Shown here: positions 9,964 to 48,409 of the stretch, piece after piece
Position numbering within the stretch: position 1 is the stretch's first letter
Layout of the letters: every line of letters begins with the position of its first letter
Source of the DNA: an uncultured Bdellovibrionales bacterium
GTDB taxonomy: Bacteria; Bdellovibrionota_C; UBA2361; SZUA-149; CAZDIO01
Direction of reading: 5' to 3'
Length of the DNA stretch: 64,000 bases
Assembly: GCA_964505555.1 (NCBI GenBank)
Contig: CAZDIO010000102.1
Location: 13,355-77,354 of the forward strand
Translations under genes and position numbers: made by a program
The notes under the pieces: model-generated
Seen by the model: the letters and a program-made list of their open reading frames with translations, nothing else
Told to the model about the DNA's origin: nothing
Database searches by the model: none

Positions 9964-10010
9964 AGCAACCGGTTAATTTGGTGGTTTAACGTTAGCGTTA
10001 AAAAGAAACT

Positions 10011-11399
10011 ATGAGATACAGCACACGAATAATATTTCTTCTCTTTCTCTGCTACGTCGTGCTTTTTTGGCTCAATGGCTTAGGCTTTCGTCGGAAAGGA
10101 TACGTCCAAGATGATGCTCTTCAACATGTAATGTATGCTTACAATTTAGTTCATCACGGAGTAATCTCAGATGTACAATGCAGTAAGGAACCGGCCCCAG
10201 AAGCATGCAACCGCTCCCCAAGCGCCTATCGTGGTCCAGGCTATCCCTTCTTTCTCGCTCTCAACATTGCATTGAATCCCAAACTGCGCGCGCTTGACGA
10301 ACAACAGATTGTAAAACCTGAATTCCTTAATCCCCTTAGAAACAGTGAACTGTTGCTTCTCTGGCTCACTTCGATTTTCATTTATAAAATTGTATTTATT
10401 TTGACACAAAGAAGATTTCCCGCATTTGTTGCGCTCCTGAGCGTTGGTTTTAATCCGATTCTCCTAGACTATCAGAATGAATTTTATTCGGAAAATTTCG
10501 GCGCCCTTTTGGTTACAATCCTTTCTTACGCACTGCTCATGGCATACAGAAGTGGCCGATATAGATATTATGGATTGAGTGGATTTCTTACCGGTTGTTT
10601 GACATTAACGATCCCCATTTTTTACTACCTCCCATGGCTTTTTATAATCGTTTCCTTTGGTTTATCTCGAAGCAAAAAGATTCATTATCAACAATGGCTG
10701 AAAACTTCAGGGATATTTTTGATTTGTTTCGCGGGTGTTGTGCTTCCTTGGATGGTGCGTAACTACCTCCATTTTGATCGGTTCTACATTACAGAGCGTG
10801 CTGGAGCGATGCTCAACGTTCGTGCGGAGAAAGATCTCATGAATAAAAAAGAGTTTTTTGCGGCGTTTTGTTATTGGAGCAACTGTTCTTTTTTACAGAG
10901 TTTAAGAAAACCATTTGAGAATGATCCCGCATTTCATCGCCTTATTCGCGGCAATCCAGATAGTTTCTATCGAACCGGAAGAGTTCGCCGATTGGAACTA
11001 AACCGTGAGCATGGTCCGGTGGTGGCAGACAAACTATTACTTCGAGAAGCAGTAGAAAAAATTACTTCGCATCCATTTCGACATCTTGCAGTAACCCTCC
11101 CGGTGATGTTTCGTGGCATGGGAATGCAAAGCTGTGGACTAGATTTTATTCTTTTTGGAAGCACATTACTGTTGTTCCTTGCTTCAATTGCGAAACGTGA
11201 TGGACAACTTTTTATTCTCTTATTACCAACCGCTTACTGCTATGCTTTTTATAGCTTGGTAACTTACCATCTCCCACGGTACAGCCTACCACTTTTGCCA
11301 ATGTTTTGGGTCGCCACAATTGTGGCTCTTTATCGTCTGACAAAGAGAATGGAAACTAACAAAGACGATATGTTCCAAAGCTCTCTTACCAACACTTAG
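10011..11399 (+). CDS. Polytopic membrane protein, GT-C-like (ArnT/PMT-type) candidate glycosyltransferase
   Basis: 462 aa with many N-terminal TM helices and a short conserved acidic loop near the N-terminus (YVQDDALQHV). Assignment is by architecture only. Confidence 0.3.
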   Translation: MRYSTRIIFLLFLCYVVLFWLNGLGFRRKGYVQDDALQHVMYAYNLVHHGVISDVQCSKEPAPEACNRSPSAYRGPGYPFFLALNIALNPKLRALDEQQIVKPEFLNPLRNSELLLLWLTSIFIYKIVFILTQRRFPAFVALLSVGFNPILLDYQNEFYSENFGALLVTILSYALLMAYRSGRYRYYGLSGFLTGCLTLTIPIFYYLPWLFIIVSFGLSRSKKIHYQQWLKTSGIFLICFAGVVLPWMVRNYLHFDRFYITERAGAMLNVRAEKDLMNKKEFFAAFCYWSNCSFLQSLRKPFENDPAFHRLIRGNPDSFYRTGRVRRLELNREHGPVVADKLLLREAVEKITSHPFRHLAVTLPVMFRGMGMQSCGLDFILFGSTLLLFLASIAKRDGQLFILLLPTAYCYAFYSLVTYHLPRYSLPLLPMFWVATIVALYRLTKRMETNKDDMFQSSLTNT

Positions 11400-11438: not shown

Positions 11439-12557
11439 CTATTGTTCCTTGGATACGGTGCGTGGAAAAGGACTTTGATGCAAGGAATCACTCCCGGGCG
11501 CCCCTGGAGATGAGTCTCCAAATGTCACCGTTCTTCCCAGCTTACGAGATTCGCTCGCAGCTTCCAAGAGCGAAACAACGTCAACACCAGAATTACCATC
11601 CGTAAGTGGGTTTTCATTGTTCACAATACAATGAATGAAATGCTCTGCTTCAACCTGAAGCGGCTCTCGAAATGAAAGTTTCGGAATGACAATATCTCCT
11701 GCTCGTTGAATCAGCGCAAACTGATCATAAGAGTGAAATGGTCTTGCACCCCAAGTATCTTTTACACTTTTTCGCTCAACTCCTTTGTCAAAAACAGTGA
11801 TTTTTTGATCTAGAGAGGTATCATCATAAATCACCATCTTTTTGCTTCCAACGAGTACCCCCTTTCGGGTCTTACTCGGGTCAAGCCAACTTACGTGGAT
11901 GTTGGCAAACTTTCCGCTCGGGAAGCGAAGACTTACGAAGGAGATATCGTCAATATCCTGTTGCAGGTAAGACATCCCGGTTGCGATTACTTCCGTGGGC
12001 TGCTCACCAAACCAGTAGAGCACAATAGAAAGATCATGTGGCGCTAAATTCCATAGCGCATCGACATCTTGCCTTACCTGACCCAAAGCCAAACGCTGCA
12101 TATACACGTAATAAATCTGGCCAAGCTCACCGTCATCAATAAACTTTTTAACCCACCGCACGGCATCGTTGTAAAGGAAGGTGTGTCCCACAGCGAGCTT
12201 AACGTTTTGAAGCTGTGCAAGCTCAACGAGTTCTTTGGCTTCTATTACGGTCGTAGCAAGTGGCTTCTCAACAAAAACATGCTTTCCTCGAAGGATCGCT
12301 GCTTTTGCCTGCCGATAATGTTCCTTTGCAGGACTAGCGATGATTACCGCCTCAATTTCTGATCGGGACAGAAGATCATCCAAAGAACGATCGATATATC
12401 GAACTCGTGGATATTTCTTCTCTATTTCTCTATGTTGCTCCTCTCGCGGCTCACAACAAGCAATAAGATCGCATCCTTCAAGAGAGGAAAAACAGCGCAG
12501 GAGGTTTGCACCCCAGTATCCATAGCCGATCAGTGCGCAATTTATTGTTCGTGACAC
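11439..12557 (-). CDS. Gfo/Idh/MocA-family NAD(P)-dependent oxidoreductase (WbpB-like sugar dehydrogenase candidate)
   Basis: N-terminal Rossmann ALIGYGYWGANLLRCF and a C-terminal Gfo/Idh/MocA alpha/beta domain. It sits among DegT and acetyltransferase genes. Confidence 0.8.
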   Translation of the reverse strand: MSRTINCALIGYGYWGANLLRCFSSLEGCDLIACCEPREEQHREIEKKYPRVRYIDRSLDDLLSRSEIEAVIIASPAKEHYRQAKAAILRGKHVFVEKPLATTVIEAKELVELAQLQNVKLAVGHTFLYNDAVRWVKKFIDDGELGQIYYVYMQRLALGQVRQDVDALWNLAPHDLSIVLYWFGEQPTEVIATGMSYLQQDIDDISFVSLRFPSGKFANIHVSWLDPSKTRKGVLVGSKKMVIYDDTSLDQKITVFDKGVERKSVKDTWGARPFHSYDQFALIQRAGDIVIPKLSFREPLQVEAEHFIHCIVNNENPLTDGNSGVDVVSLLEAASESRKLGRTVTFGDSSPGAPGSDSLHQSPFPRTVSKEQ

Positions 12558-14803: not shown

Positions 14804-15564
14804 ATTCTCAAGCTGCGGCAGTTGCATCTCCCGAATTGAACGCTCAAGCTCGACCGCGAGTCGCAGTCATTATTCCTGTCTATAATGAAGAAAAAGTTAT
14901 CGGACGAGTTCTTGATGCCATTCCACGAGAACATGTTGATGTGGTGATCGTGGTTGATGATGGTTCAACTGATTCGACCCCAACTGAATTAGAAAAAAGA
15001 GATGTTCAGGTCATCCGTCACGAGAAACAACTCTTTATCGGGGCGGCTATTCGAGATGGACTTCGGAAGGCAAAAGAGCTGGGAATAGACATTGTGTGCG
15101 TTTTTGCCGGGAACGGAAAGGACGATCCTCAAGAATTACCATTATTACTTCGACCGATCATCGAACAAGGTTATGATTTTGTCCAAGGCTCTCGCTATCT
15201 TCCGGGTGGGCGATCCGGAAAAATGCCTCGTCATCGTCGGATCGTAACAAAGGTTTACCCACTTCTTGTGAGATTTTTCACCGGAGTCAAGATTACTGAT
15301 GGAACTAATGGATTTCGGGCTTATCGCTTACAACTCCTTGATGATCCGGAGATAGATCTCGATCAGCCATGGCTCAGTGAGTGCCTAGAGTATTATTTTT
15401 CACTCAGAGTGTTTCAGCAAGGGTATTCAGTGACCGAAGTCCCTGTTTCAAAAATCTATCCTGATACTGCTGTGTATAGTGAGTATACAAAAGTTCGTCC
15501 CGGAATTGGATGGCTCAATCGCCTTAAACCACTTTTTTTTCTTGGTTTCCGCCTGAGAAAGTAA
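14791..15564 (+). CDS. Glycosyltransferase family 2 (DPM1-like polyprenyl-phosphate sugar synthase type)
   Basis: RVAVIIPVYNEEKVIGRVLDAIP...VVIVVDDGSTDST, with DxD-type motifs. Confidence 0.85.
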   Translation: MPPINSQAAAVASPELNAQARPRVAVIIPVYNEEKVIGRVLDAIPREHVDVVIVVDDGSTDSTPTELEKRDVQVIRHEKQLFIGAAIRDGLRKAKELGIDIVCVFAGNGKDDPQELPLLLRPIIEQGYDFVQGSRYLPGGRSGKMPRHRRIVTKVYPLLVRFFTGVKITDGTNGFRAYRLQLLDDPEIDLDQPWLSECLEYYFSLRVFQQGYSVTEVPVSKIYPDTAVYSEYTKVRPGIGWLNRLKPLFFLGFRLRK

Positions 15565-16825
15565 GCTCGCCTCGAATATCTTCGCGAAGGCTGATGAGAA
15601 AAATAACGGCGGCACCAACAAAAAAGACTGCACTTCCAGCCAGCGTTGCATATGCTGCTCCCTCCGTGGAAGTTTCAGGGATAAGGAGCAGTCCGATAGA
15701 AACGTTTATGATCAGCGATATTCCTGCAAGAACTCCTTGTATTCGAAGACGCCTCATGATGGTAATTGCTGCGTTGAGATATCCATAGAGATACATCATT
15801 GCAGCAGCAACCATGAAGATTCCGAGAATCTTTCCTGAGTGTGCAAGATCTTTTCCATAAATGAGCGACAATAGCTGATCCCCATAGGCAAAGCTGATTA
15901 CAATACCAACCGCACCGATACTGAGTGCAAATAATAACAACCCCCTTAGAAAAAATATGAACCGCTTTCGAGAAGCATGATACGTTTGAGCAAGCGGAGT
16001 AAGTGCCGATGCAGTTAACGCCTCACAGAGCGTCACGCCGATGTACATAAAGTAGCTCACCGCCGTATAGATTCCAAGCGAACCAAGACCTTGCAAACGC
16101 TCTAATAAATATCGAGGAGCATTCGTGTTAAGAGAAACCAGAAGTCGTCTTGCACCCAGAGGCGAGGCTTTTTTTGCAAGTAAAAAGAGCTGTTGATATC
16201 TAATTGGCTGAGCAAGTTCTCTCCATGAAAGATTTTCAGCAAGAAACGTGCGCGCACGTTTTGAAATGAAATACAGCACGATTCCACGCGAAAGAATGAG
16301 AAAAAACAACGCTGATATTAAATCACTAAAAAAATACATCCCAATCAAAATAGAAAGAACACTGAGTACTCCATTGATGATTTGAAACTTCGCAACTTCT
16401 CCTAAGCGTTCCTTGCGCTGAAAAAGTGCTTCGACCATATCGTGGAAGGAATCAACAACCTTTACCAAAGCAACAAGAAGTATCACCTGCCACTGCTCCA
16501 CATCTTTGGTGTAAGTAAAACCAACACCCATAATGACAATAAAGCAGATGATCGAGGTAAAGAAGCGGAGATGAAAATACGTACACGGTTCATTGTCACG
16601 ATTAATATCCGTAACCAGTAAATCCCGGGCACTAAAATTAAAAAATGCAAAAAATGGTGCGCTCAATGCAAGTGCGAGCCCAAAAAGGCCCACCATTTCT
16701 ACATCCCCTAACCACATCAGAATAACCAATATCATCCACTGCGAAAACGAGTAGAATACGTTTCCGATGAGCATCCAGACAAAATTTGACCCGATGCGGC
16801 TTTGTAGAGAAAACCACCTAACCAT
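15524..16825 (-). CDS. Wzx-like oligosaccharide flippase (MOP superfamily polysaccharide biosynthesis protein)
   Basis: 433 aa with about 12 TM segments. The periodicity is typical of polysaccharide-biosynthesis (Wzx) proteins. Confidence 0.65.
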   Translation of the reverse strand: MVRWFSLQSRIGSNFVWMLIGNVFYSFSQWMILVILMWLGDVEMVGLFGLALALSAPFFAFFNFSARDLLVTDINRDNEPCTYFHLRFFTSIICFIVIMGVGFTYTKDVEQWQVILLVALVKVVDSFHDMVEALFQRKERLGEVAKFQIINGVLSVLSILIGMYFFSDLISALFFLILSRGIVLYFISKRARTFLAENLSWRELAQPIRYQQLFLLAKKASPLGARRLLVSLNTNAPRYLLERLQGLGSLGIYTAVSYFMYIGVTLCEALTASALTPLAQTYHASRKRFIFFLRGLLLFALSIGAVGIVISFAYGDQLLSLIYGKDLAHSGKILGIFMVAAAMMYLYGYLNAAITIMRRLRIQGVLAGISLIINVSIGLLLIPETSTEGAAYATLAGSAVFFVGAAVIFLISLREDIRGELTFSGGNQEKKVV

Positions 16826-17014
16826 GAATTGTAAAGCCTCAGCTTTTTAAGTAGGAGCAGAACTCATATCACACGTCATTTGGCAGTGTCTATTATAGCT
16901 AGCAGGCGGACAGACCGTGGTTGTATTTTGGCACGCAAGAAGGTATTGAGAACGGTGTTATTTTTGTAGGTACATCAAATAATAACTAGCTCTTAAAGTG
17001 AAGGAAAATAGATC

Positions 17015-18118
17015 ATGAGCGGAGTCCCTTTTGCAGATCTCAGTAGACAGCATTCGTCGATGAAATCAGAGCTCCAAACTGCCTTTGATCGAGTTGTCGG
17101 TAAAGGTGATTTTATTCTTGGTGCAGAAGTAAAACATTTTGAAGAGGAGTGGGCAAACTTTACCGGCGCAAAAGCTGCTATCGGTTGCTCGAATGGAACA
17201 GATTCTCTCGTGCTGATCTTACTCGCATTAGGTATTGGTCCTGGTGATGAAGTCATCACTGTTTCACATACATTCTTTGCAACTGTTGAAGCAATTCAAA
17301 GCGTGGGTGCAACCCCTATTTTGGTTGACATTCTTCCACGCAATGGGTTGATGGATCCTCAATTAATTGAACCCGCTATTACTCCTCGGACAAAGGCGAT
17401 TATTCCAGTTCACCTCTATGGTCAGCCGGTTGAACTGGATGAGATTCTTGCAGTTTCAGAGAAGTATAATCTTTACTGTATCCAAGATGCCGCTCAAGCG
17501 CATGGTGCTCTCTATAAGAAAAAGCCACTTGCCAATTATGGTATCGCTTCATCATACAGTTTCTACCCGGGCAAAAATCTCGGCGCTCTTGGAGACGCAG
17601 GCGCTGTAGTCACTAATGATTTAGAACTTGCAAAGAGAATGAGATCGTTACGTGATCATGGGCGAAGCGAAAAATACAGTCACAATGAATTTGGCTGGAA
17701 TATGCGCATGGATGGTTTACAAGCGGCATTTCTATCTGCAAAACTCCCTAAGCTTTCCGGCTGGAACGATGATCGAAAGAAAGTTGCTGCAATGTACCTA
17801 GAAAGCTTGCGCGAACTACCAGGCCTTACCTTTCTGGAAATTTCTCGCCATGTCGATCACGTTTTTCATCTTTTTGTAGTTTGCCATGAACAACGAGACG
17901 ACCTCCAAAGGAAATTAAAAGCTGAAGGAGTCGCAACAGGAATTCACTACCCGTTAGGATGTCACCAACAAACTGCTTGGAAAAACCGCTACGGCGAGAT
18001 GAATCTTCCGCATACAGAGAAACTTGCCCGTACCTGTCTCTCGCTGCCGATCTTTGGAGAGATGAGGGAAGAGGAGGCAATGATGGTTGTCTCTGCACTT
18101 CGTCGCGTGCTTAGCTAA
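17015..18118 (+). CDS. DegT/DnrJ-family PLP-dependent sugar aminotransferase (second copy)
   Basis: GCSNGTDSLVLILLALGIGPGDEVITVSHTFFATVEAI and SFYPGKNLGALGDAG. Confidence 0.85.
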   Translation: MSGVPFADLSRQHSSMKSELQTAFDRVVGKGDFILGAEVKHFEEEWANFTGAKAAIGCSNGTDSLVLILLALGIGPGDEVITVSHTFFATVEAIQSVGATPILVDILPRNGLMDPQLIEPAITPRTKAIIPVHLYGQPVELDEILAVSEKYNLYCIQDAAQAHGALYKKKPLANYGIASSYSFYPGKNLGALGDAGAVVTNDLELAKRMRSLRDHGRSEKYSHNEFGWNMRMDGLQAAFLSAKLPKLSGWNDDRKKVAAMYLESLRELPGLTFLEISRHVDHVFHLFVVCHEQRDDLQRKLKAEGVATGIHYPLGCHQQTAWKNRYGEMNLPHTEKLARTCLSLPIFGEMREEEAMMVVSALRRVLS

Positions 18119-29305: not shown

Positions 29306-29353
29306 TTAATAAAGAATCTTTAACTTAATGGCCGTGAGAATCCTCCTAACGTT

Positions 29354-29427
29354 AGCTGTAACAAGAACCCCGGTCGTTGCGAGCCGGGAAACCTCCGCTC
29401 GCAACGACAGGGGTTCTTGTTACAGCT
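29354..29427. repeat. Near-perfect 31-nt-arm palindrome, family C copy 1 (agctgtaacaagaaccccggtcgttgcgagc ... gctcgcaacgacaggggttcttgttacagct)
   Basis: Read directly, one mismatch between arms. It shares the motif gctcgcaacgacagg with elements at 56134-56235 and 59767-59782. The flanking motif ctaaagtggaa recurs at about 34950. Confidence 0.8.
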
Positions 29428-29501
29428 AAAGTGGAATTGCTTTTAGTGTTTAAAATCTTATCGTGAGGACGCGTTGACTAGTGCTAGAACAACTCGAATG
29501 T

Positions 29502-29675
29502 TTAATTGCCGTGCATCGCGTTTTCCATCTCTGTTGCAGTATGTTCCAGATCTTGATTTAACGATTGGCCAAAGTTTGCAACTCCTGCCAAACAAACAAG
29601 CAACACAGAAGCTGCAAGTAGCAGATACTCAAGTAACGATGCTCCACGCTCGTTTTTTCGAATGTTCAATACCAT
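29502..29675 (-). CDS. flp: Flp/Fap-family type IVb prepilin (57 aa; below the ORF-track length cutoff)
   Basis: Manual translation of the minus strand gives MVLNIRKNERGASLLEYLLLAASVLLVCLAGVANFGQSLNQDLEHTATEMENAMHGN. It has the Flp signature G/ASxxEYxLL after a short basic leader. Confidence 0.55.
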   Translation of the reverse strand: MVLNIRKNERGASLLEYLLLAASVLLVCLAGVANFGQSLNQDLEHTATEMENAMHGN

Positions 29676-29822
29676 AACCTCTCCTTTCCGGTGGCTAACC
29701 CCCTTCCAGCCTTATTATGCACGCGAATGCCTAAGGAATTAATCGAGAAATTATGGGAAAATCTTTAGATAAACTTGAAATCTTTGAATTGAGAAAAATA
29801 CTTAACTTACTGAAATAACTAG

Positions 29823-30071
29823 TTAATTACTCCAGTACTGCCCACCCTTTTTAGTAACTCCCCGCCTAAACTGCCAATCTTTCCATGCAAAGGCGAGAAA
29901 AAACATCCCAGATACAATAAACAAACTAGCAACCATAGCCGCAAGAATCCGTGGAAACTCAAGGATCAGTAACCCAAGTGCCACAAAACAAATTCCGAGG
30001 GTGAAAAACATTGAAGTCAGCCCACCCCAAAAATTTGATGCTCTTTGAAAAAACACAACTTGTCGAAACAT
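29823..30071 (-). CDS. Small two-TM membrane protein, unknown function
   Basis: 82 aa with two hydrophobic helices. Confidence 0.3.
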   Translation of the reverse strand: MFRQVVFFQRASNFWGGLTSMFFTLGICFVALGLLILEFPRILAAMVASLFIVSGMFFLAFAWKDWQFRRGVTKKGGQYWSN

Positions 30072-30321
30072 CTTTTTATCTCTTACGTAATTAATCTATT
30101 TGAAGTCTGCTATCATCTCGTAAGCACCCCTTGGAAGATAAGGACGTAAGCCAACTTTGGCAAGAGCCGCACCAAGAAAAGCTCTCTTCTGAAGATAGCT
30201 GGGCAAACAGCATTTGATAAAAACTATCGTCAAATACGGTAAATCCGTCGCTACCCCTTCCTGTAGTAGCACTGGGTGTAGATAGAGATACTATCAAAAA
30301 GGGGGGTAAGTGTCATTCCTA

Positions 30322-36657: not shown

Positions 36658-38235
36658 CTAAACGCTACGATTCCTTTCTCGTTTTCTTTTCCAAGTTTCA
36701 AAGTCTACTACCGCAATTTTTTTTGCAAGCTCCTCACGAACACATCCTTCAACCGCTTCATGAAGACTTCTTCGATCAAGAGCGGTTTTTAAGCAGTTCA
36801 TCTTCTTTTCAACCTGATCATAGAGGTTTGAAAGAGACTCAGAAGAGAGTGTTTTTCGATAGCGATCGACTTCGGTAGAGAGGTATTCCTGATACTCTTT
36901 TTTCTCAACTGGATTGGCCTCTCCCCGCCCGCTAGAGATTGGGGCTTTTGGAAAGTCCCGCCCAGTATTTTTAAGGATTTTCTCTTCAAAACTCCGGGGA
37001 ATAATGAATTTATGTGGAGTTTCTACTGCCCGATAGAGAAAACCTACCCGATTTTTTGAGACTTTCGTATCATTTGTTTGCACAAGAAAATCGTAATAGG
37101 AGATGATTTTATCAACTTGTAAAAGTTCTGCGGCGTTTTTTTCACTGAGCAGCCGTTTTGCTTGCGAGAGATGAATGCCTCGCGAAAGCAGAGCTTCAAT
37201 GGCTCCTTGTCGTTGTGATTCTAGATCAGTAGAACTGCGTTGGGAGGAATCTTTTTGAAAAACAGGGGGCGAAGAAAGGATAAAGCTTCCTTGCTGCGTG
37301 TGATTTCTAGGAAGAGGGCTCTCTGTTTGCTGGAGATGTTTTTGAGATACGATCTCTTTTCCGGAATGAAAGCGCACAACGGTCTCTACGCCCCTACCTG
37401 CAAACTCATAACTTGAGAGAAACCCAAGCGCTTTTAACTCCTCGCACGCTGGTTCAATTTGTTGCTTAATCTGGGAGATGTATTGATAACTTCGAGAAAG
37501 TCCTAACTTCTCAAAGGCAAAGGTAACAAGTGGTTTTTCAATACTTGATTTGTAGTAAAAATGCTTATCAAGATACCGGTAGAGCCTTCGACTTACAGCA
37601 CTTCGAAGTGAGAAATAAAGGGTTAAATCAAGCTTTTTTATAAACCCTGATTTAAAAGAATGAAAAAGTGCCTCACTCCAAATAAAATAACTCTTTGAAG
37701 CCTCAGCCCCAGAGAGGGCTTTGTTCCCTCGCCCATCGTTTATTTCGTAGGCATCGATAATTCCGAAATTTCTTGTTTGATAGGCTTTTGAAGCATTATC
37801 AAAAAACGCATTTGCTGCCCGAATTCGAACCCCGCTTAAGCGATCAAGTGATTTTGTAAGGCGGGAGTAGCTTCGCCCTTCTGTGGTCCAGCGTAAGATT
37901 CCTAAAAGCTCATACCGGGTAAAATATACCTTTCGGTTTCGAAACCCTTGATCCATCGTTAACCGCATCAAGCCAAGAAGGACATCATCATCCGTAGCGG
38001 TGGGGAGTCCAAACTTGTCTGCCCCGGTAATAATCCACTGGCGTTCAATCACCTCCCCACTGGGGAGCCGTTGGTTGTCACGAAACTCAAGGGTTTTTAC
38101 CTTTGAGTTTGTGCGTGTCGAGAGAACCGCGAGGGGAAACTCTGCAAGGTTCATCTCATCACGTGAGGTAAGCACTACCTCGGATGAGGAGACTTCACGA
38201 TCTTCGGCTCTTTGTTGGTAGAGGGTTTGCTGCAT
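36658..38235 (-). CDS. Replication initiator protein A (RepA/RPA-family)-like protein
   Basis: The N-terminal region NLAEFPLAVLSTRTNSKVKTLEFRDNQRLPSGEVIERQWIITGADKFGLPTATDDDVLLGLMRLT resembles plasmid RepA-family initiators. It faces a 900-bp non-coding region followed by parAB. Confidence 0.5.
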   Translation of the reverse strand: MQQTLYQQRAEDREVSSSEVVLTSRDEMNLAEFPLAVLSTRTNSKVKTLEFRDNQRLPSGEVIERQWIITGADKFGLPTATDDDVLLGLMRLTMDQGFRNRKVYFTRYELLGILRWTTEGRSYSRLTKSLDRLSGVRIRAANAFFDNASKAYQTRNFGIIDAYEINDGRGNKALSGAEASKSYFIWSEALFHSFKSGFIKKLDLTLYFSLRSAVSRRLYRYLDKHFYYKSSIEKPLVTFAFEKLGLSRSYQYISQIKQQIEPACEELKALGFLSSYEFAGRGVETVVRFHSGKEIVSQKHLQQTESPLPRNHTQQGSFILSSPPVFQKDSSQRSSTDLESQRQGAIEALLSRGIHLSQAKRLLSEKNAAELLQVDKIISYYDFLVQTNDTKVSKNRVGFLYRAVETPHKFIIPRSFEEKILKNTGRDFPKAPISSGRGEANPVEKKEYQEYLSTEVDRYRKTLSSESLSNLYDQVEKKMNCLKTALDRRSLHEAVEGCVREELAKKIAVVDFETWKRKRERNRSV

Positions 38236-39130: not shown

Positions 39131-39913
39131 GTGGCCATGGCAAAAGTCTTTGCAATAGTGAATCAAAAGGGGGGAGTTGGAAAAACTACCACCGCTGCAA
39201 ATTTGGCCGCCGCGCTATCTGAGCGAGGTCAAAAAGTGCTTGTTATTGATCTTGATGCTCAAGCAAATCTCTCTGCTCATTTTGGAAGTTCCGTAGATGA
39301 TCAGAGTGAGCAGCTTACAATGTATGATGTGCTCAGGCACAACGCCCCGATTGAAAAAGCAATAATAAACCTCTCTTCGAACTTAAGTATCGTTCCTGCA
39401 AGCCTCCTACTAAGTGCTGCAGATTTAGAGCTTGGTGGTGTTATCGGTCGTGAGTTACTTCTTAAAAAAGCTCTTCAACCGGTAATTGATGACTATGATT
39501 ACACGATCATTGATTGCCCACCCTCACTGGGGATGCTCTCCCTCAATGGGCTTGTTGCTGCTTCACGAGTTATCGTTCCTGTTCAAAGTGAGTTTTTAGC
39601 CCTTCACGGCGTAAGGCAGCTTCTTGATACGATTGACCAGGTACGAAGTGCCTACAACCCCTTACTTGCTGTGGGTGGAGTTCTTCTCTGTCTTCATGAT
39701 TCAAGAAGGAGACTGGCGCGGAGTGTTGCCGATACGGTGCGCGAATATTTTGGAGATCTTGTTTTTGAAACTGTCATTCGCACAAACGTTGCCCTTGCTG
39801 AAGCACCTGCCCAGGGGGACTCAATTTTTCAATACGACCGCCGCTCAAGCGGTGCTGAAGATTATGCTAGCCTTGCAGAGGAGATACTAAGCCGTGGCAA
39901 AAAAGAAGGTTAA
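39131..39913 (+). CDS. parA: ParA/Soj-family partition ATPase
   Basis: Deviant Walker A KVFAIVNQKGGVGKTTTAANLAAAL. 260 aa. Confidence 0.9.
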   Translation: MAMAKVFAIVNQKGGVGKTTTAANLAAALSERGQKVLVIDLDAQANLSAHFGSSVDDQSEQLTMYDVLRHNAPIEKAIINLSSNLSIVPASLLLSAADLELGGVIGRELLLKKALQPVIDDYDYTIIDCPPSLGMLSLNGLVAASRVIVPVQSEFLALHGVRQLLDTIDQVRSAYNPLLAVGGVLLCLHDSRRRLARSVADTVREYFGDLVFETVIRTNVALAEAPAQGDSIFQYDRRSSGAEDYASLAEEILSRGKKEG

Positions 39914-40814
39914 ATTCAGTGTAAACCCACTTCTTGGGGGACCAAGTCTTGCATCACGAGCAAAGATGGGGAGCCCTTATCGGGAGCTTTTAATCGACGA
40001 GATCGATTTTGATCCTGATCAACCGCGACGAGTATTTAATGAAGAGCGACTTCAAGAGCTCGCTGATTCAATTAAAGAACACGGAATCATCTCACCAATA
40101 CTTGTTAAAGTAACAGAAGGGGGAACCTATAAGCTTGTATCTGGAGAGAGAAGACTTCGTGCCTCAAAAATTGCTGGATTAGAATCGATCCCCGCAGTTA
40201 TTGAAGACGATGATAAAAGTAGTGATGTAACCCTTCCTAAGCAGCTTGTAGAAAATCTCCAACGAGAAGATCTCACCGTAATGGAGAGGGCGATCGCTAT
40301 TGGCCAACTACGAGATGCTTACAAATTGAGCATTCGTGAGATCTCCTCAAAGCTTTCCATTTCAAAAGGACTCGTTCAGAGAAGCCTTGAAGTTCTCGAT
40401 CTCCCAGACGATCTTCAAGCAGCGTTAATAAACGGTGCCTCAGAGACGAAGATTCTCGTTTTAGCGAAAGTTTCGAATCGTGAATTGAGAAAAGAATTTA
40501 TCGCTCAACTTGATAATTTCACCCGAGCACAACTTGAAGAAGAGGTAGATCGGGTTACGACACTCTTAAATGGCGACAAAGAAGAGGTGTACCACGGTGG
40601 TACACCTCGTAGTCGAAAAAATGGAAGAAATAAACTTTCCCCTCAAGATGAGCAGTTAATTAATGATTTAAAAAACAAACTAGGAACAAGAGTTTCTTTA
40701 ATGCGCAGTCGTGGCAAAGAGGGGCAGGGGAAGCTGATGATCGAGTTCTATTCAGATAACGATCTAAGCGAGATCTTTCGACGACTTTGTCGAACCGCTA
40801 GCGATTCTCTTTAA
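39894..40814 (+). CDS. parB: ParB/Spo0J-family partition protein
   Basis: ParB N-terminal box ISPILVKVTEGGTYKLVSGERRLRASKIAGLESIPAVI and a central HTH. It overlaps the parA stop. Confidence 0.85.
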   Translation: MAKKKVKFSVNPLLGGPSLASRAKMGSPYRELLIDEIDFDPDQPRRVFNEERLQELADSIKEHGIISPILVKVTEGGTYKLVSGERRLRASKIAGLESIPAVIEDDDKSSDVTLPKQLVENLQREDLTVMERAIAIGQLRDAYKLSIREISSKLSISKGLVQRSLEVLDLPDDLQAALINGASETKILVLAKVSNRELRKEFIAQLDNFTRAQLEEEVDRVTTLLNGDKEEVYHGGTPRSRKNGRNKLSPQDEQLINDLKNKLGTRVSLMRSRGKEGQGKLMIEFYSDNDLSEIFRRLCRTASDSL

Positions 40815-46482: not shown

Positions 46483-47196
46483 GTGGTGAAAGGGACAACG
46501 GAAAAATTAACTGAAGAGCAGATTCCCCTCGTAATTGAAAATATTCTTTATGCAAAAAAACTGGCGAGGCAGTTTTATCAACAACGAAGCCACTTCGGTT
46601 TCGATGTTGAGGATTTTGAAGGCGCAGCATTGTTTGGATTATGTGACGCTGCAAGGAGGTTTGAGCCTGATAAGACACTTCATTTTAGAACATTTTCCTA
46701 TTTTCGCATTCGGGGTGCGATGTATGATCTGCTGCGACATGGGGGGGGAATTTCGAAGAAACACTTCAAGTGTTTCATTGAAAATCGAAATCAAACGGGA
46801 GAGGGGACAAAACCTCGAGCAGAGGAAGAAGGGAGCCTCCCCTATTCATTTGCAAGAACTGCTGAGGAGTTATCGAGCATTATTGCCACGATTGAAGAGA
46901 TCGATATCGCTGTGCATGTCAGCACGGACAGCGAGATTCCTGAACTCAGCTACGCACGAGACCTAAATCCTGAAGAGATCAATACCATTCGTGCAACCCG
47001 GTCCTATATTAGAAAACTTATCTCTCAACTTCCCACTGAACAACGAACCGTAATTGAACTTCGCTACTACAATGGCGCTACCTTTGATGAAATTAGCGCA
47101 AATCTCGGTGGGCACTCACGGAGTTGGGTTTCACGAACCCATGTTCGAGCTCTTGATAATTTGCGAGGGATGATTCTTAGCGAAAGGAGAGTGTAA
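46483..47196 (+). CDS. fliA: Sigma-28-type (FliA/WhiG family) RNA polymerase sigma factor
   Basis: Region 2 (FDVEDFEGAALFGLCDAARRFEPDKTLHFRTFSYFRIRGAMYDLLR) and region 4 HTH (TVIELRYYNGATFDEISANLGGHSRSWVSRTHVRALDNLR). 237 aa. Confidence 0.8.
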   Translation: MVKGTTEKLTEEQIPLVIENILYAKKLARQFYQQRSHFGFDVEDFEGAALFGLCDAARRFEPDKTLHFRTFSYFRIRGAMYDLLRHGGGISKKHFKCFIENRNQTGEGTKPRAEEEGSLPYSFARTAEELSSIIATIEEIDIAVHVSTDSEIPELSYARDLNPEEINTIRATRSYIRKLISQLPTEQRTVIELRYYNGATFDEISANLGGHSRSWVSRTHVRALDNLRGMILSERRV

Positions 47197-48131
47197 TGAC
47201 ATCCTCAAAATGGAAAGGAATTTTTCTTGCGCTCGTAGCGTTTTTTCAGGTCAGTTGTAAAGAGACCGTTCTTCATAACTTAGATGAGGTGCGAGCCAAT
47301 CAGGTAAAAGTAACACTAGAGAAACGAGGAATTACTGCGCAAAAGCTTTTTGAAGGGAGCGGATGGAGTATTCGAGTCAAGCGTGCTGACGAAACAGAGG
47401 CACTCTCGATTCTTGAAGAAAGCAGAGTTCTCAAACGGAATCTCCGAACCCCGATAGAACCACCAAAGGGGCTTATTCCAAGCCGAGAGGAACGAGCATC
47501 ATTTTCAGAACGGCAACTGGCGGCAAGTTTAGAAAGTACTCTTGAGCGCTTACCCTATGTGCTAGAAGCTCGAGTTCATCTGAACTTAAATGCCGAAGAG
47601 AACCTTCAAATGGTTTTGCCAAAAGAGGGCCATACGGGAAGTGCTCTGATTGTCACCGATGATCATATGCCTGATCATTTAGCAATTCAAAAATCTCAAG
47701 TACAACAACTCATTGCAGGAGCATCAGGAGTAAACCCACAATCAATCTCGGTAGTAATCGCCAAAGCAAGTGCTGAAAACTACGCAGAGCCACAGATCCA
47801 TAAAGTAGCAAAGCCAGTAGAGACGACGAAAAAAGATACTCCCTCCCATTCTCCATCGTGGATAAAAAAGCTGATAGTGCATGCTCGACAGTATCAAACA
47901 TTTTTAATCTATCTCGCTGGGGTATTAATTGCAGTTCTTGCACTCCGATTGATTTTTCGAAAAAACCCATTTCGAAGTGAGCAAACAATACCGAGTTTTC
48001 AAATGCCTCCTCTGAAGAACTCAAAAAATACCGTCTCCTCTGGTGTTCTGGTCAACGGTACCCAACACGGAAATGGCAGTCAGTTTAAACTGCAACCAAA
48101 CAAACAACATGAAACATTGGAGGTGTACTAA
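47196..48131 (+). CDS. sctJ: SctJ (YscJ/PrgK/EscJ/CdsJ-family) type III secretion inner-membrane ring lipoprotein
   Basis: Lipobox FFQVSC, SctJ-conserved blocks (ARVHLNLNAEEN; VQQLIAGASGVNPQSISVVI) and a C-terminal TM. 311 aa, which is injectisome-size, not FliF-size. Its ATG overlaps the fliA stop. Confidence 0.8.
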   Translation: MTSSKWKGIFLALVAFFQVSCKETVLHNLDEVRANQVKVTLEKRGITAQKLFEGSGWSIRVKRADETEALSILEESRVLKRNLRTPIEPPKGLIPSREERASFSERQLAASLESTLERLPYVLEARVHLNLNAEENLQMVLPKEGHTGSALIVTDDHMPDHLAIQKSQVQQLIAGASGVNPQSISVVIAKASAENYAEPQIHKVAKPVETTKKDTPSHSPSWIKKLIVHARQYQTFLIYLAGVLIAVLALRLIFRKNPFRSEQTIPSFQMPPLKNSKNTVSSGVLVNGTQHGNGSQFKLQPNKQHETLEVY

Positions 48132-48132
48132 G

Positions 48133-48408
48133 ATGATGGCTTCTTCTTTAAATATCCATTGCTCACGGCGATGTGAATTGCTTCTCTGCTTAAGTTATCT
48201 CCTTACCCCAGAAGCAGTTACTTCCATCGCCTCAAAATTAGCAACCAATCGCGATCAAGCCGCGAGAAACCTTGCTCAGGCGATGATGTCACTCTCTCCT
48301 CAGTATGTACGAGACCTGAGTTTAAAAACACTTGCCAATGCCGGAATGAGTATCGGTAATTATAAAAACCAAACGCATGCTCACGGGGTAGCCTCGAGGA
48401 AGTTGTAA
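48133..48408 (+). CDS. Small T3SS-associated protein of unknown role (about 92 aa)
   Basis: An ATG immediately after the sctJ stop. No clear motif. Called by position only. Confidence 0.3.
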   Translation: MMASSLNIHCSRRCELLLCLSYLLTPEAVTSIASKLATNRDQAARNLAQAMMSLSPQYVRDLSLKTLANAGMSIGNYKNQTHAHGVASRKL

Positions 48409-48409
48409 A

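Follow-up and report, generated by a model that had tools for sequence, protein, structure and literature searches.

The 57-codon gene on the minus strand of the window, by which we mean the whole 64,000-nt stretch of DNA analysed here, genuinely encodes a prepilin of the Flp family (type IVc, Tad-type), a family already known (Table 1). We consider it likely that a prepilin peptidase processes its product and that a Tad machine with genes elsewhere in the genome assembles it, with expression of the gene probably driven by a sigma-28-type promoter of its own. In this scheme, the inner membrane would take up the 57-aa precursor, which would then be cut after Gly11 by a prepilin peptidase, either of the TadV/CpaA type or a type IVa PilD, as is the case for Bdellovibrio Flp1. 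This would leave a 46-aa all-helical mature pilin, carrying Glu5 and Tyr6, as the subunit from which the Tad machine (TadA ATPase, TadB/C platform and RcpA secretin), with its genes elsewhere in the genome, would build a thin pilus, and the Flp gene would be expressed together with a motile or attack-type programme. In this proposed pathway, the cutting and polymerisation of the pilin, the sigma factor named and the presence of Tad genes elsewhere are all predictions.

Table 1. Features of the Flp locus in the window, and the orthologous genes from related metagenomic loci
Feature	Position or source	Strand	Basis or details
Flp-type (type IVc/Tad) prepilin gene	29502..29675	-	ORF; Flp_Fap; phmmer relatives; subfamily profile; synteny; pN well below pS
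Predicted leader MVLNIRKNERG, residues 1-11, with the invariant Gly at its end	29643..29675	-	19 homologs; alignment to 8U2B/8U1K
Predicted mature pilin, 46 aa (ASLLEYLLLAASVLLVCLAGVANFGQS...), with Glu5 and Tyr6	29505..29642	-	E16/Y17 invariant; AlphaFold2; solved pilins of 45 aa
Shine-Dalgarno sequence AAGGAGAGG	29678..29686	-	Read from the sequence; ends 2 nt 5' of the ATG
FliA-like/sigma-28 motif TAAAG-N16-TCGATT	29741..29767	-	Kept upstream of all five orthologs; predicted function
Palindromic hairpin, with the convergent Flp and UbiD genes on either side	29353..29429	.	RNA fold
Two-TM protein, 82 aa (MFRQVV.F.R...), weakly HdeD/DUF308-like	29823..30071	-	Directly 5' of the Flp ortholog in five loci
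Ortholog L003	ENA		P0002; 57 aa; 71% identity to the window protein (phmmer)
Ortholog L004	JGI, 103-kb contig		P0003; 61 aa; 58% (phmmer)
Ortholog L005	Logan, 68-kb contig		P0004; start miscalled; 58% (phmmer)
Ortholog L009/L010/L012	ENA, Logan and metagenome-collection contig; one organism		60 aa; 49% (alignment)

Family assignment of the 57-aa protein

The ORF list and the window sequence agree on a reading frame of 57 codons plus a stop, with an ATG start, whose product is MVLNIRKNERGASLLEYLLLAASVLLVCLAGVANFGQSLNQDLEHTATEMENAMHGN. The original prediction had been of a 57-aa minus-strand ORF with the Flp/Fap hallmark, namely MVLNIRKNERG followed by ASLLEY and a hydrophobic stretch, and this is exactly what the sequence contains. 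The leader is short, basic and ends in Gly, followed by the G/XXXXEY pattern. A six-frame scan for G-x4-E-[YFHW] plus a hydrophobic run returned two sites in the window, one of them in the Flp ORF and the other within the adjacent 82-aa ORF, inside a transmembrane segment; judged from the sequence, the match in the Flp ORF is well above chance.

A search with the Pfam Flp_Fap model (PF04964) had been proposed as a check, and its outcome is divided: the match is significant (E=1.6e-5, covering model positions 3-44 of 46), but its 25.1 bits fall below the gathering score of 32.2. The NCBIfam search of the 57-aa protein gave no Flp match. The relatives of the protein speak more clearly. A phmmer search against 1.84 billion representative proteins produced 32 matches at E<=1e-3, the best at 3e-13 and most of them 54-79 aa long, and the 20 of these 32 that were read all have an Flp-type leader, the G-x4-EY motif and a hydrophobic helix. 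In an alignment of 19 sequences, drawn from the phmmer relatives and the orthologous loci, G11, E16 and Y17 are invariant, as they are in the four closest orthologs; 16 of the 19 aligned relatives match Flp_Fap at E<=0.01, with a best value of 7.9e-16. The length of the protein also lies within the range of Flp/Fap prepilins (roughly 50-80 aa), at 57 aa in the window and 57-61 aa among the orthologs.

Homology to experimentally established Tad pilus subunits comes from a profile of this subfamily, which aligns over the full mature chain with the solved structures 8U2B (E=1.4e-9) and 8U1K (E=1.1e-8). In both alignments, the residue facing mature residue 1 is Ala12, which supports cleavage after Gly11 and a mature pilin of 46 aa with Glu5 and Tyr6. 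The relationship is visible to the profile search only, as BLASTP of the 57-aa protein against the 8U2B sequence gave no alignment. Matches of the profile to geopilins were marginal (E=0.02-0.16). A hydrophobic segment of about 20 residues follows the motif, and AlphaFold2, run with the alignment, modelled a single long helix over residues 14-55 with a mean pLDDT of 82.8, as expected for an all-alpha-helical pilin. Foldseek with this predicted single helix gave one match at E=8.9, which is uninformative.

Other pilin classes were also considered. Type IVa and IVb pilins and T2SS pseudopilins (N_methyl) are marked by a G-[FM]-[ST]-L-[IL]-E N-terminus and by a globular C-terminal domain longer than 100 aa. 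The protein does not fit this class, having Ala at position +1, EY at +5/+6 and a mature part of only 46 residues, and the N-terminal motif is absent from all six frames of the window.

Conserved position and annotation of the Flp gene

The gene occupies the same position in five related metagenomic loci, on contigs independent of one another, in which a gene of about 80 codons for a two-TM protein is followed by the Flp gene, convergent with the gene for a UbiD-family decarboxylase. Where the relatives' contigs reach, the order of the flagellin, SLT transglycosylase, RPA-like and ParA/ParB genes is also as in the window. The orthologous proteins are 47-63% identical when aligned (58-71% by phmmer). 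Between the Flp orthologs, pS is 0.65-0.95, that is, saturated, whereas pN is only 0.29-0.47, and dN/dS is 0.16-0.45 where computable; on these sequence comparisons, the Flp gene is under purifying selection.

These data bear directly on the simplest alternative, in which a chance ORF in an intergenic region would merely resemble an Flp leader. The ORF is indeed very short, its Pfam score is below threshold, and a 67-aa ORF overlaps it on the opposite strand. However, orthologs that keep 47-63% identity despite saturated synonymous change, a conserved position, the presence of an RBS and a terminator, and a best phmmer E of 3e-13 against 1.8 billion proteins leave this reading with almost no probability. 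Indeed, because saturated pS is set against low pN across the orthologs, the conservation data refute it, and as judged from the coding sequences we regard it as excluded.

The local signals support an independent gene. Downstream, 70-150 nt 3' of the Flp gene, lies a hairpin with a near-perfect stem of about 33 bp (-77 kcal/mol, z = -8.7), whose arms have no second copy in the window and which is likely to act as a bidirectional terminator for the Flp and UbiD genes. With its own RBS, a promoter-like element and this strong terminator, the Flp gene is probably monocistronic. A different long palindrome is inserted in the spacer 5' of the Flp gene of L005; the palindromes of the window and of L005 may either terminate transcription in both directions or represent small mobile palindromic elements.

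The gene had been described as unannotated, which does not hold for this record: the NCBI and Logan collections already contain an identical 57-aa protein with a precomputed PF04964 match, and the L004 ortholog is named 'Flp pilus assembly pilin Flp' by JGI. Gene callers nevertheless missed the ortholog in two sister assemblies, L009 (ENA) and L010 (Logan). In L009, the gene for the 60-aa Flp ortholog (11760-11942, minus strand) runs 23 nt into the end of the convergent UbiD gene. A profile scan of metagenome contigs with the ortholog alignment found only the L009 organism again, as L012. The sole match in contigs of GTDB-representative genomes, L006, was rejected as spurious, being a ComEA-like protein whose signal peptide fits the pattern.

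The subfamily has a more distant member in L007 (JGI 3300015615), where P0014 (about 51% identity) is encoded at 10001-10174, alone between gidA and gidB. It is surrounded by an origin-proximal gene set, with rnpA, yidC, trmE and parAB nearby and an SLT gene close, and no tad genes were found within 10 kb of it.

Flp genes of about 57 codons are thus called inconsistently and can sit far from tad genes, and for these two reasons pilus inventories based on loci will undercount Flp in uncultured Bdellovibrionota-like bacteria.

Neighbouring genes, upstream motif and missing assembly genes

The left half of the window holds polysaccharide and glycosylation genes. In the middle, the order is UbiD, Flp, two-TM, flagellin, SLT, OsmC, isocitrate dehydrogenase, RPA-like, ParA/ParB, polyprenyl synthetase and haem synthesis; next comes a small T3SS-like cluster, and then more housekeeping genes. 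Rfam and tRNA scans of the window gave no matches. The RPA-like gene encodes a 525-aa protein (36658-38235, minus strand) with a Replication initiator protein A (PF10134) domain; it adjoins parAB (39131-40814) amid otherwise chromosomal-looking housekeeping DNA, an unusual neighbour for a partition locus, and this arrangement is kept in L005, L009 and L013. Between the flagellin and two-TM genes, at 30099-30275 on the minus strand, lies a remnant of about 59 aa that derives from a class I/II aminotransferase gene (tblastn against the intact L003 gene: 51% identity over residues 278-336, E=1e-13). The intact gene stands between flagellin and the two-TM ORF in L003, L005 and L009; in the window, it is deleted to this fragment.

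Regarding the host lineage, the named best homologs of the UbiD protein (60-67% identity) are mostly labelled as Deltaproteobacteria, Oligoflexia, Bdellovibrionales and Bdellovibrionota MAGs, with one homolog each labelled Proteobacteria and Planctomycetota. Judged from these neighbour-gene names and from the gene order in common with L011, the host is probably a Bdellovibrionota-like bacterium. A chlamydial origin, at first suspected because the SctV-like protein is closest to PDB 7ALW, was dropped in view of the UbiD names and the synteny with L011.

The most constant companion of the Flp gene is the two-TM ORF of about 80 aa (MFRQVV.F.R...GLLIL.FP..L.A), which stands directly 5' of it in all five loci and is itself under purifying selection, with synonymous sites saturated as they are for Flp. 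Its only family hint is HdeD/DUF308, from an NCBIfam HdeD match at E=4.8e-4, far below the cut-off. We considered whether it could be a minimal prepilin peptidase and rejected this, as the protein lacks an invariant Asp, falls well short of the length needed and looks HdeD-like.

This constant pairing allows another reading of the locus, namely that the product is an Flp-like bitopic membrane peptide, uncleaved or differently processed, which forms no pili and acts with the HdeD-like two-TM protein. The co-occurrence of the two genes in all five loci, the lack of assembly genes near any locus and a Pfam score below the gathering threshold would all be in keeping with it. We nevertheless consider it very improbable: the residues for processing and assembly (Gly-1, Glu5 and Tyr6) are invariant, the resemblance to solved Tad pilins covers the whole chain, and the more distant relative P0014 has no two-TM partner. 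Moreover, the two-TM gene lies only 38-39 nt 3' of the aminotransferase gene in L003 and L009, and a promoter-like motif stands between the two-TM and Flp genes, so that these need not form one unit.

That motif is the main reason for proposing a sigma-28-type promoter for the predicted prepilin gene. The spacers between the two-TM and Flp genes measure 86-401 nt and cannot otherwise be aligned, but T[ATC]AAG-N16-[TC]CGA[TC] occurs with identical spacing in those of all five loci, and TAAAG-N17-CGATWA has an exact match in the window at 29741-29767 (minus strand) only. The B. bacteriovorus attack-phase promoter consensus, TTAAG-N16-CCGATA, has been attributed to FliA (PMC3627812). The motif matches this B. 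bacteriovorus consensus with 2-3 mismatches over 11 positions, the copy in the window having 3. The degenerate motif on its own is not remarkable, with 2 occurrences found in one genome against 1.2 expected, and three or fewer mismatches to the consensus are reached by about 15% of random 150-nt windows. It is because the motif is conserved across loci that we call a promoter here, putatively of the sigma-28/FliA type. A sigma-70-like alternative upstream in the window (TTAATT-17-CATAAT, found by eye) was discarded because it is not kept in the orthologous spacers. The flagellin upstream regions hold no conserved copy of the sigma-28-like motif, and as it is missing 5' of the flagellin genes we do not claim that the Flp gene belongs to the flagellar regulon. 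The FliA-like motif suggests a link with a motile or attack-phase programme that can be put to the test.

The Tad machine itself would have to be encoded elsewhere. The window had been noted to show no tad/cpa genes, and Pfam scans and six-frame motif scans bear this out: among all substantial ORFs of the 64 kb, Pfam found no Tad ATPase/T2SSE, T2SSF platform, secretin, TadE/G pseudopilin or A24 peptidase, and the six-frame scans of the window found no T2SSE Walker A, A24 peptidase or type IVa pilin signature. Similarly, no tad, cpa or prepilin-peptidase genes were found within 10 kb of any ortholog. The linkage of the Flp gene to TadA/CpaF, TadB/C, RcpA/CpaC and TadV/CpaA is thus absent from the window and the ortholog loci. 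Such linkage is usual but not obligatory, and unlinked flp genes have been documented (PMC5430801).

Comparison with two further relatives shows that the interval between UbiD and flagellin changes its content. In the syntenic relative L013 (664-kb contig), the UbiD and flagellin genes are directly convergent and only 67 nt apart; the Flp and two-TM module is absent, with no Flp-like ORF there, and the module is therefore dispensable in that genome. In L011 (GCA_046328905.1, JAXLVP010000002.1), a more distant relative whose UbiD protein is labelled 'Bdellovibrionota bacterium' at NCBI, the interval at 14949-17866 holds a three-gene operon of TadG-like (PF13400), TadF-like (G-x4-EF) and TadE-like genes. 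L011 and the window have the order GT2, an ORF of about 160 aa and UbiD in common. The operon of L011 adjoins a histidine kinase, Hpt and response-regulator set. Its TadEFG-like genes give the one indirect hint of a Tad machine in the host genome of the Flp gene. Depending on the lineage, the cargo of the interval is an aminotransferase gene, AAA_14/DUF4143 or TadEFG-like genes. Given Flp in the clade of the window and a TadEFG-like operon in L011, the UbiD-flagellin interval is variable in content, and in two lineages its cargo is pilus-related.

Such variability would suit the main rival reading, in which the Flp gene is real but a spare paralog, or a minor or silent one, comparable to flp3 in B. 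bacteriovorus, the major pilin being encoded in a tad locus elsewhere and the Flp copy here being accessory cargo of the variable UbiD-flagellin region. Besides the loss of the module in L013 and the changing cargo among lineages, this reading is favoured by the presence of several flp genes in each genome of Bdellovibrio and like organisms (BALOs), of which flp3 is silent and dispensable (PMC5430801). We rate it as unlikely, since purifying selection and a cleavage motif that is invariant across diverged orthologs argue against it, as do the conserved promoter-like motif and RBS, and the stand-alone genes flp4 (Bdellovibrio) and kilP (Myxococcus) have proved essential.

The T3SS-like cluster (46483-53146, plus strand) comprises a FliA/WhiG-like sigma factor, SctJ, four ORFs without matches, a SctQ-like protein, SctV and a TPR protein. 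The sigma factor (46483-47196) matches TIGR02479 at E=1e-23, below the cut-off, and SctJ is matched at E=1e-21; SctV scores higher with the hrcV model than with FlhA, and the PDB entry that it matches best is 7ALW, 'Low calcium response protein'. Genes for SctN, SctRSTU and a secretin were not found in the window. By analogy with the Myxococcus T3SS*, the cluster could encode an apparatus that is reduced or 'needleless'. The TPR protein (52529-53146) had been likened to TadD, a comparison that finds no specific support: the ORF has generic TPR repeats and a lipobox-like N-terminus (...LSTGC), its best NCBIfam match is PilW at E=1e-11 with 44.9 bits against a cut-off of 154, and no secretin gene accompanies it in the window.

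A bolder proposal can be built from these pieces, namely that the Flp and two-TM genes are the major pilin module of a predation-type, Kil-like Tad pilus, in an uncultured Bdellovibrionota-like lineage, driven by a FliA-type sigma factor and working with the reduced, perhaps needle-less, T3SS-like apparatus 17 kb away. We consider this improbable; if true, it would be a parallel to the Myxococcus Kil/T3SS* pair in a different phylum, with a new small accessory membrane protein.

Comparison with known Tad systems

The pilins of solved structure, 8U2B ('Flp family type IVb pilin') and 8U1K ('PilA'), have mature chains of 45 aa as against 46 aa for the window pilin, with which they have in common the A-x-x-x-E-Y N-terminus, the hydrophobic helix and the amphipathic C-terminal half. 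Unlike them, the subfamily of the window has a conserved LAGVAN(F/L)G segment of its own. The genes for the 8U2B and 8U1K pilins presumably adjoin their own cpa/tad genes.

In the predatory bacteria, flp genes have been found both inside and outside the TAD locus in every BALO genome examined (Avidan et al. 2017, PMC5430801). One of them, flp4 ('bd4000'), was originally an unannotated intergenic ORF and is required for predation, and another is flp3 (bd3297) (PMC5430801). Likened by description, flp3, flp4 and the window Flp gene are all small, encode G-XXXX-EY plus a hydrophobic stretch, lie away from tad and are easily missed, and flp3 and flp4 belong to the lineage suggested by the genes around the window gene. 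The TAD operon and flp1 depend on FliA, whereas the flp3 and flp4 promoters are unresponsive to it (PMC5430801). The window gene, unlike flp3 and flp4, has a conserved FliA-like motif, and a two-TM partner has not been described for those two genes; nor is such a partner among the Tad components described in PMC5430801 or bioRxiv 10.64898/2026.07.08.737194.

In its upstream motif, the window gene rather resembles flp1 (bd0119) of B. bacteriovorus, the gene for an Flp major pilin with a sigma-28-type promoter. The motif of the window gene has the same two boxes at the same 16-nt spacing, although as a predicted promoter it deviates from the attack-phase consensus at 2-3 of 11 positions. In contrast to the window gene, which has no linked assembly gene, flp1 heads an operon with tadA, tadB, rcpA and rcpC. 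In Bdellovibrio, the tad genes are reported to be scattered over at least six regions, with TadV missing and PilD processing Flp1 (bioRxiv 10.64898/2026.07.08.737194).

A further parallel is KilP (mxan_5121), the major pilin of the Tad-like Kil system of M. xanthus, which by description is likewise an Flp-type, fully helical pilin with a G/XXXXE site, at 97 aa as against the 57 aa of the window protein. Its locus tag is far from those of the kil genes named in PMC12075869, and it was found by a genome-wide search after a first candidate, KilK, had proved inessential (Herrou et al. 2025, PMC12075869). The Kil pilus cooperates with a needle-less T3SS* (PMC12075869); Myxococcus has a reduced 'needleless' T3SS-like apparatus and the window a partial T3SS-like cluster, a likeness in gene content.

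The Flp gene of the window leaves the current understanding of Tad pili unchanged. Given the unlinked flp genes of BALOs, the dispersed tad loci of Bdellovibrio and the precedent of KilP, a stand-alone flp gene without nearby tad genes in a Bdellovibrionota-like genome is the expected pattern and not an anomaly. Moreover, since stand-alone flp genes are essential for prey invasion or killing in cultured predators, the window Flp gene would be a reasonable marker to follow if this lineage is cultured.
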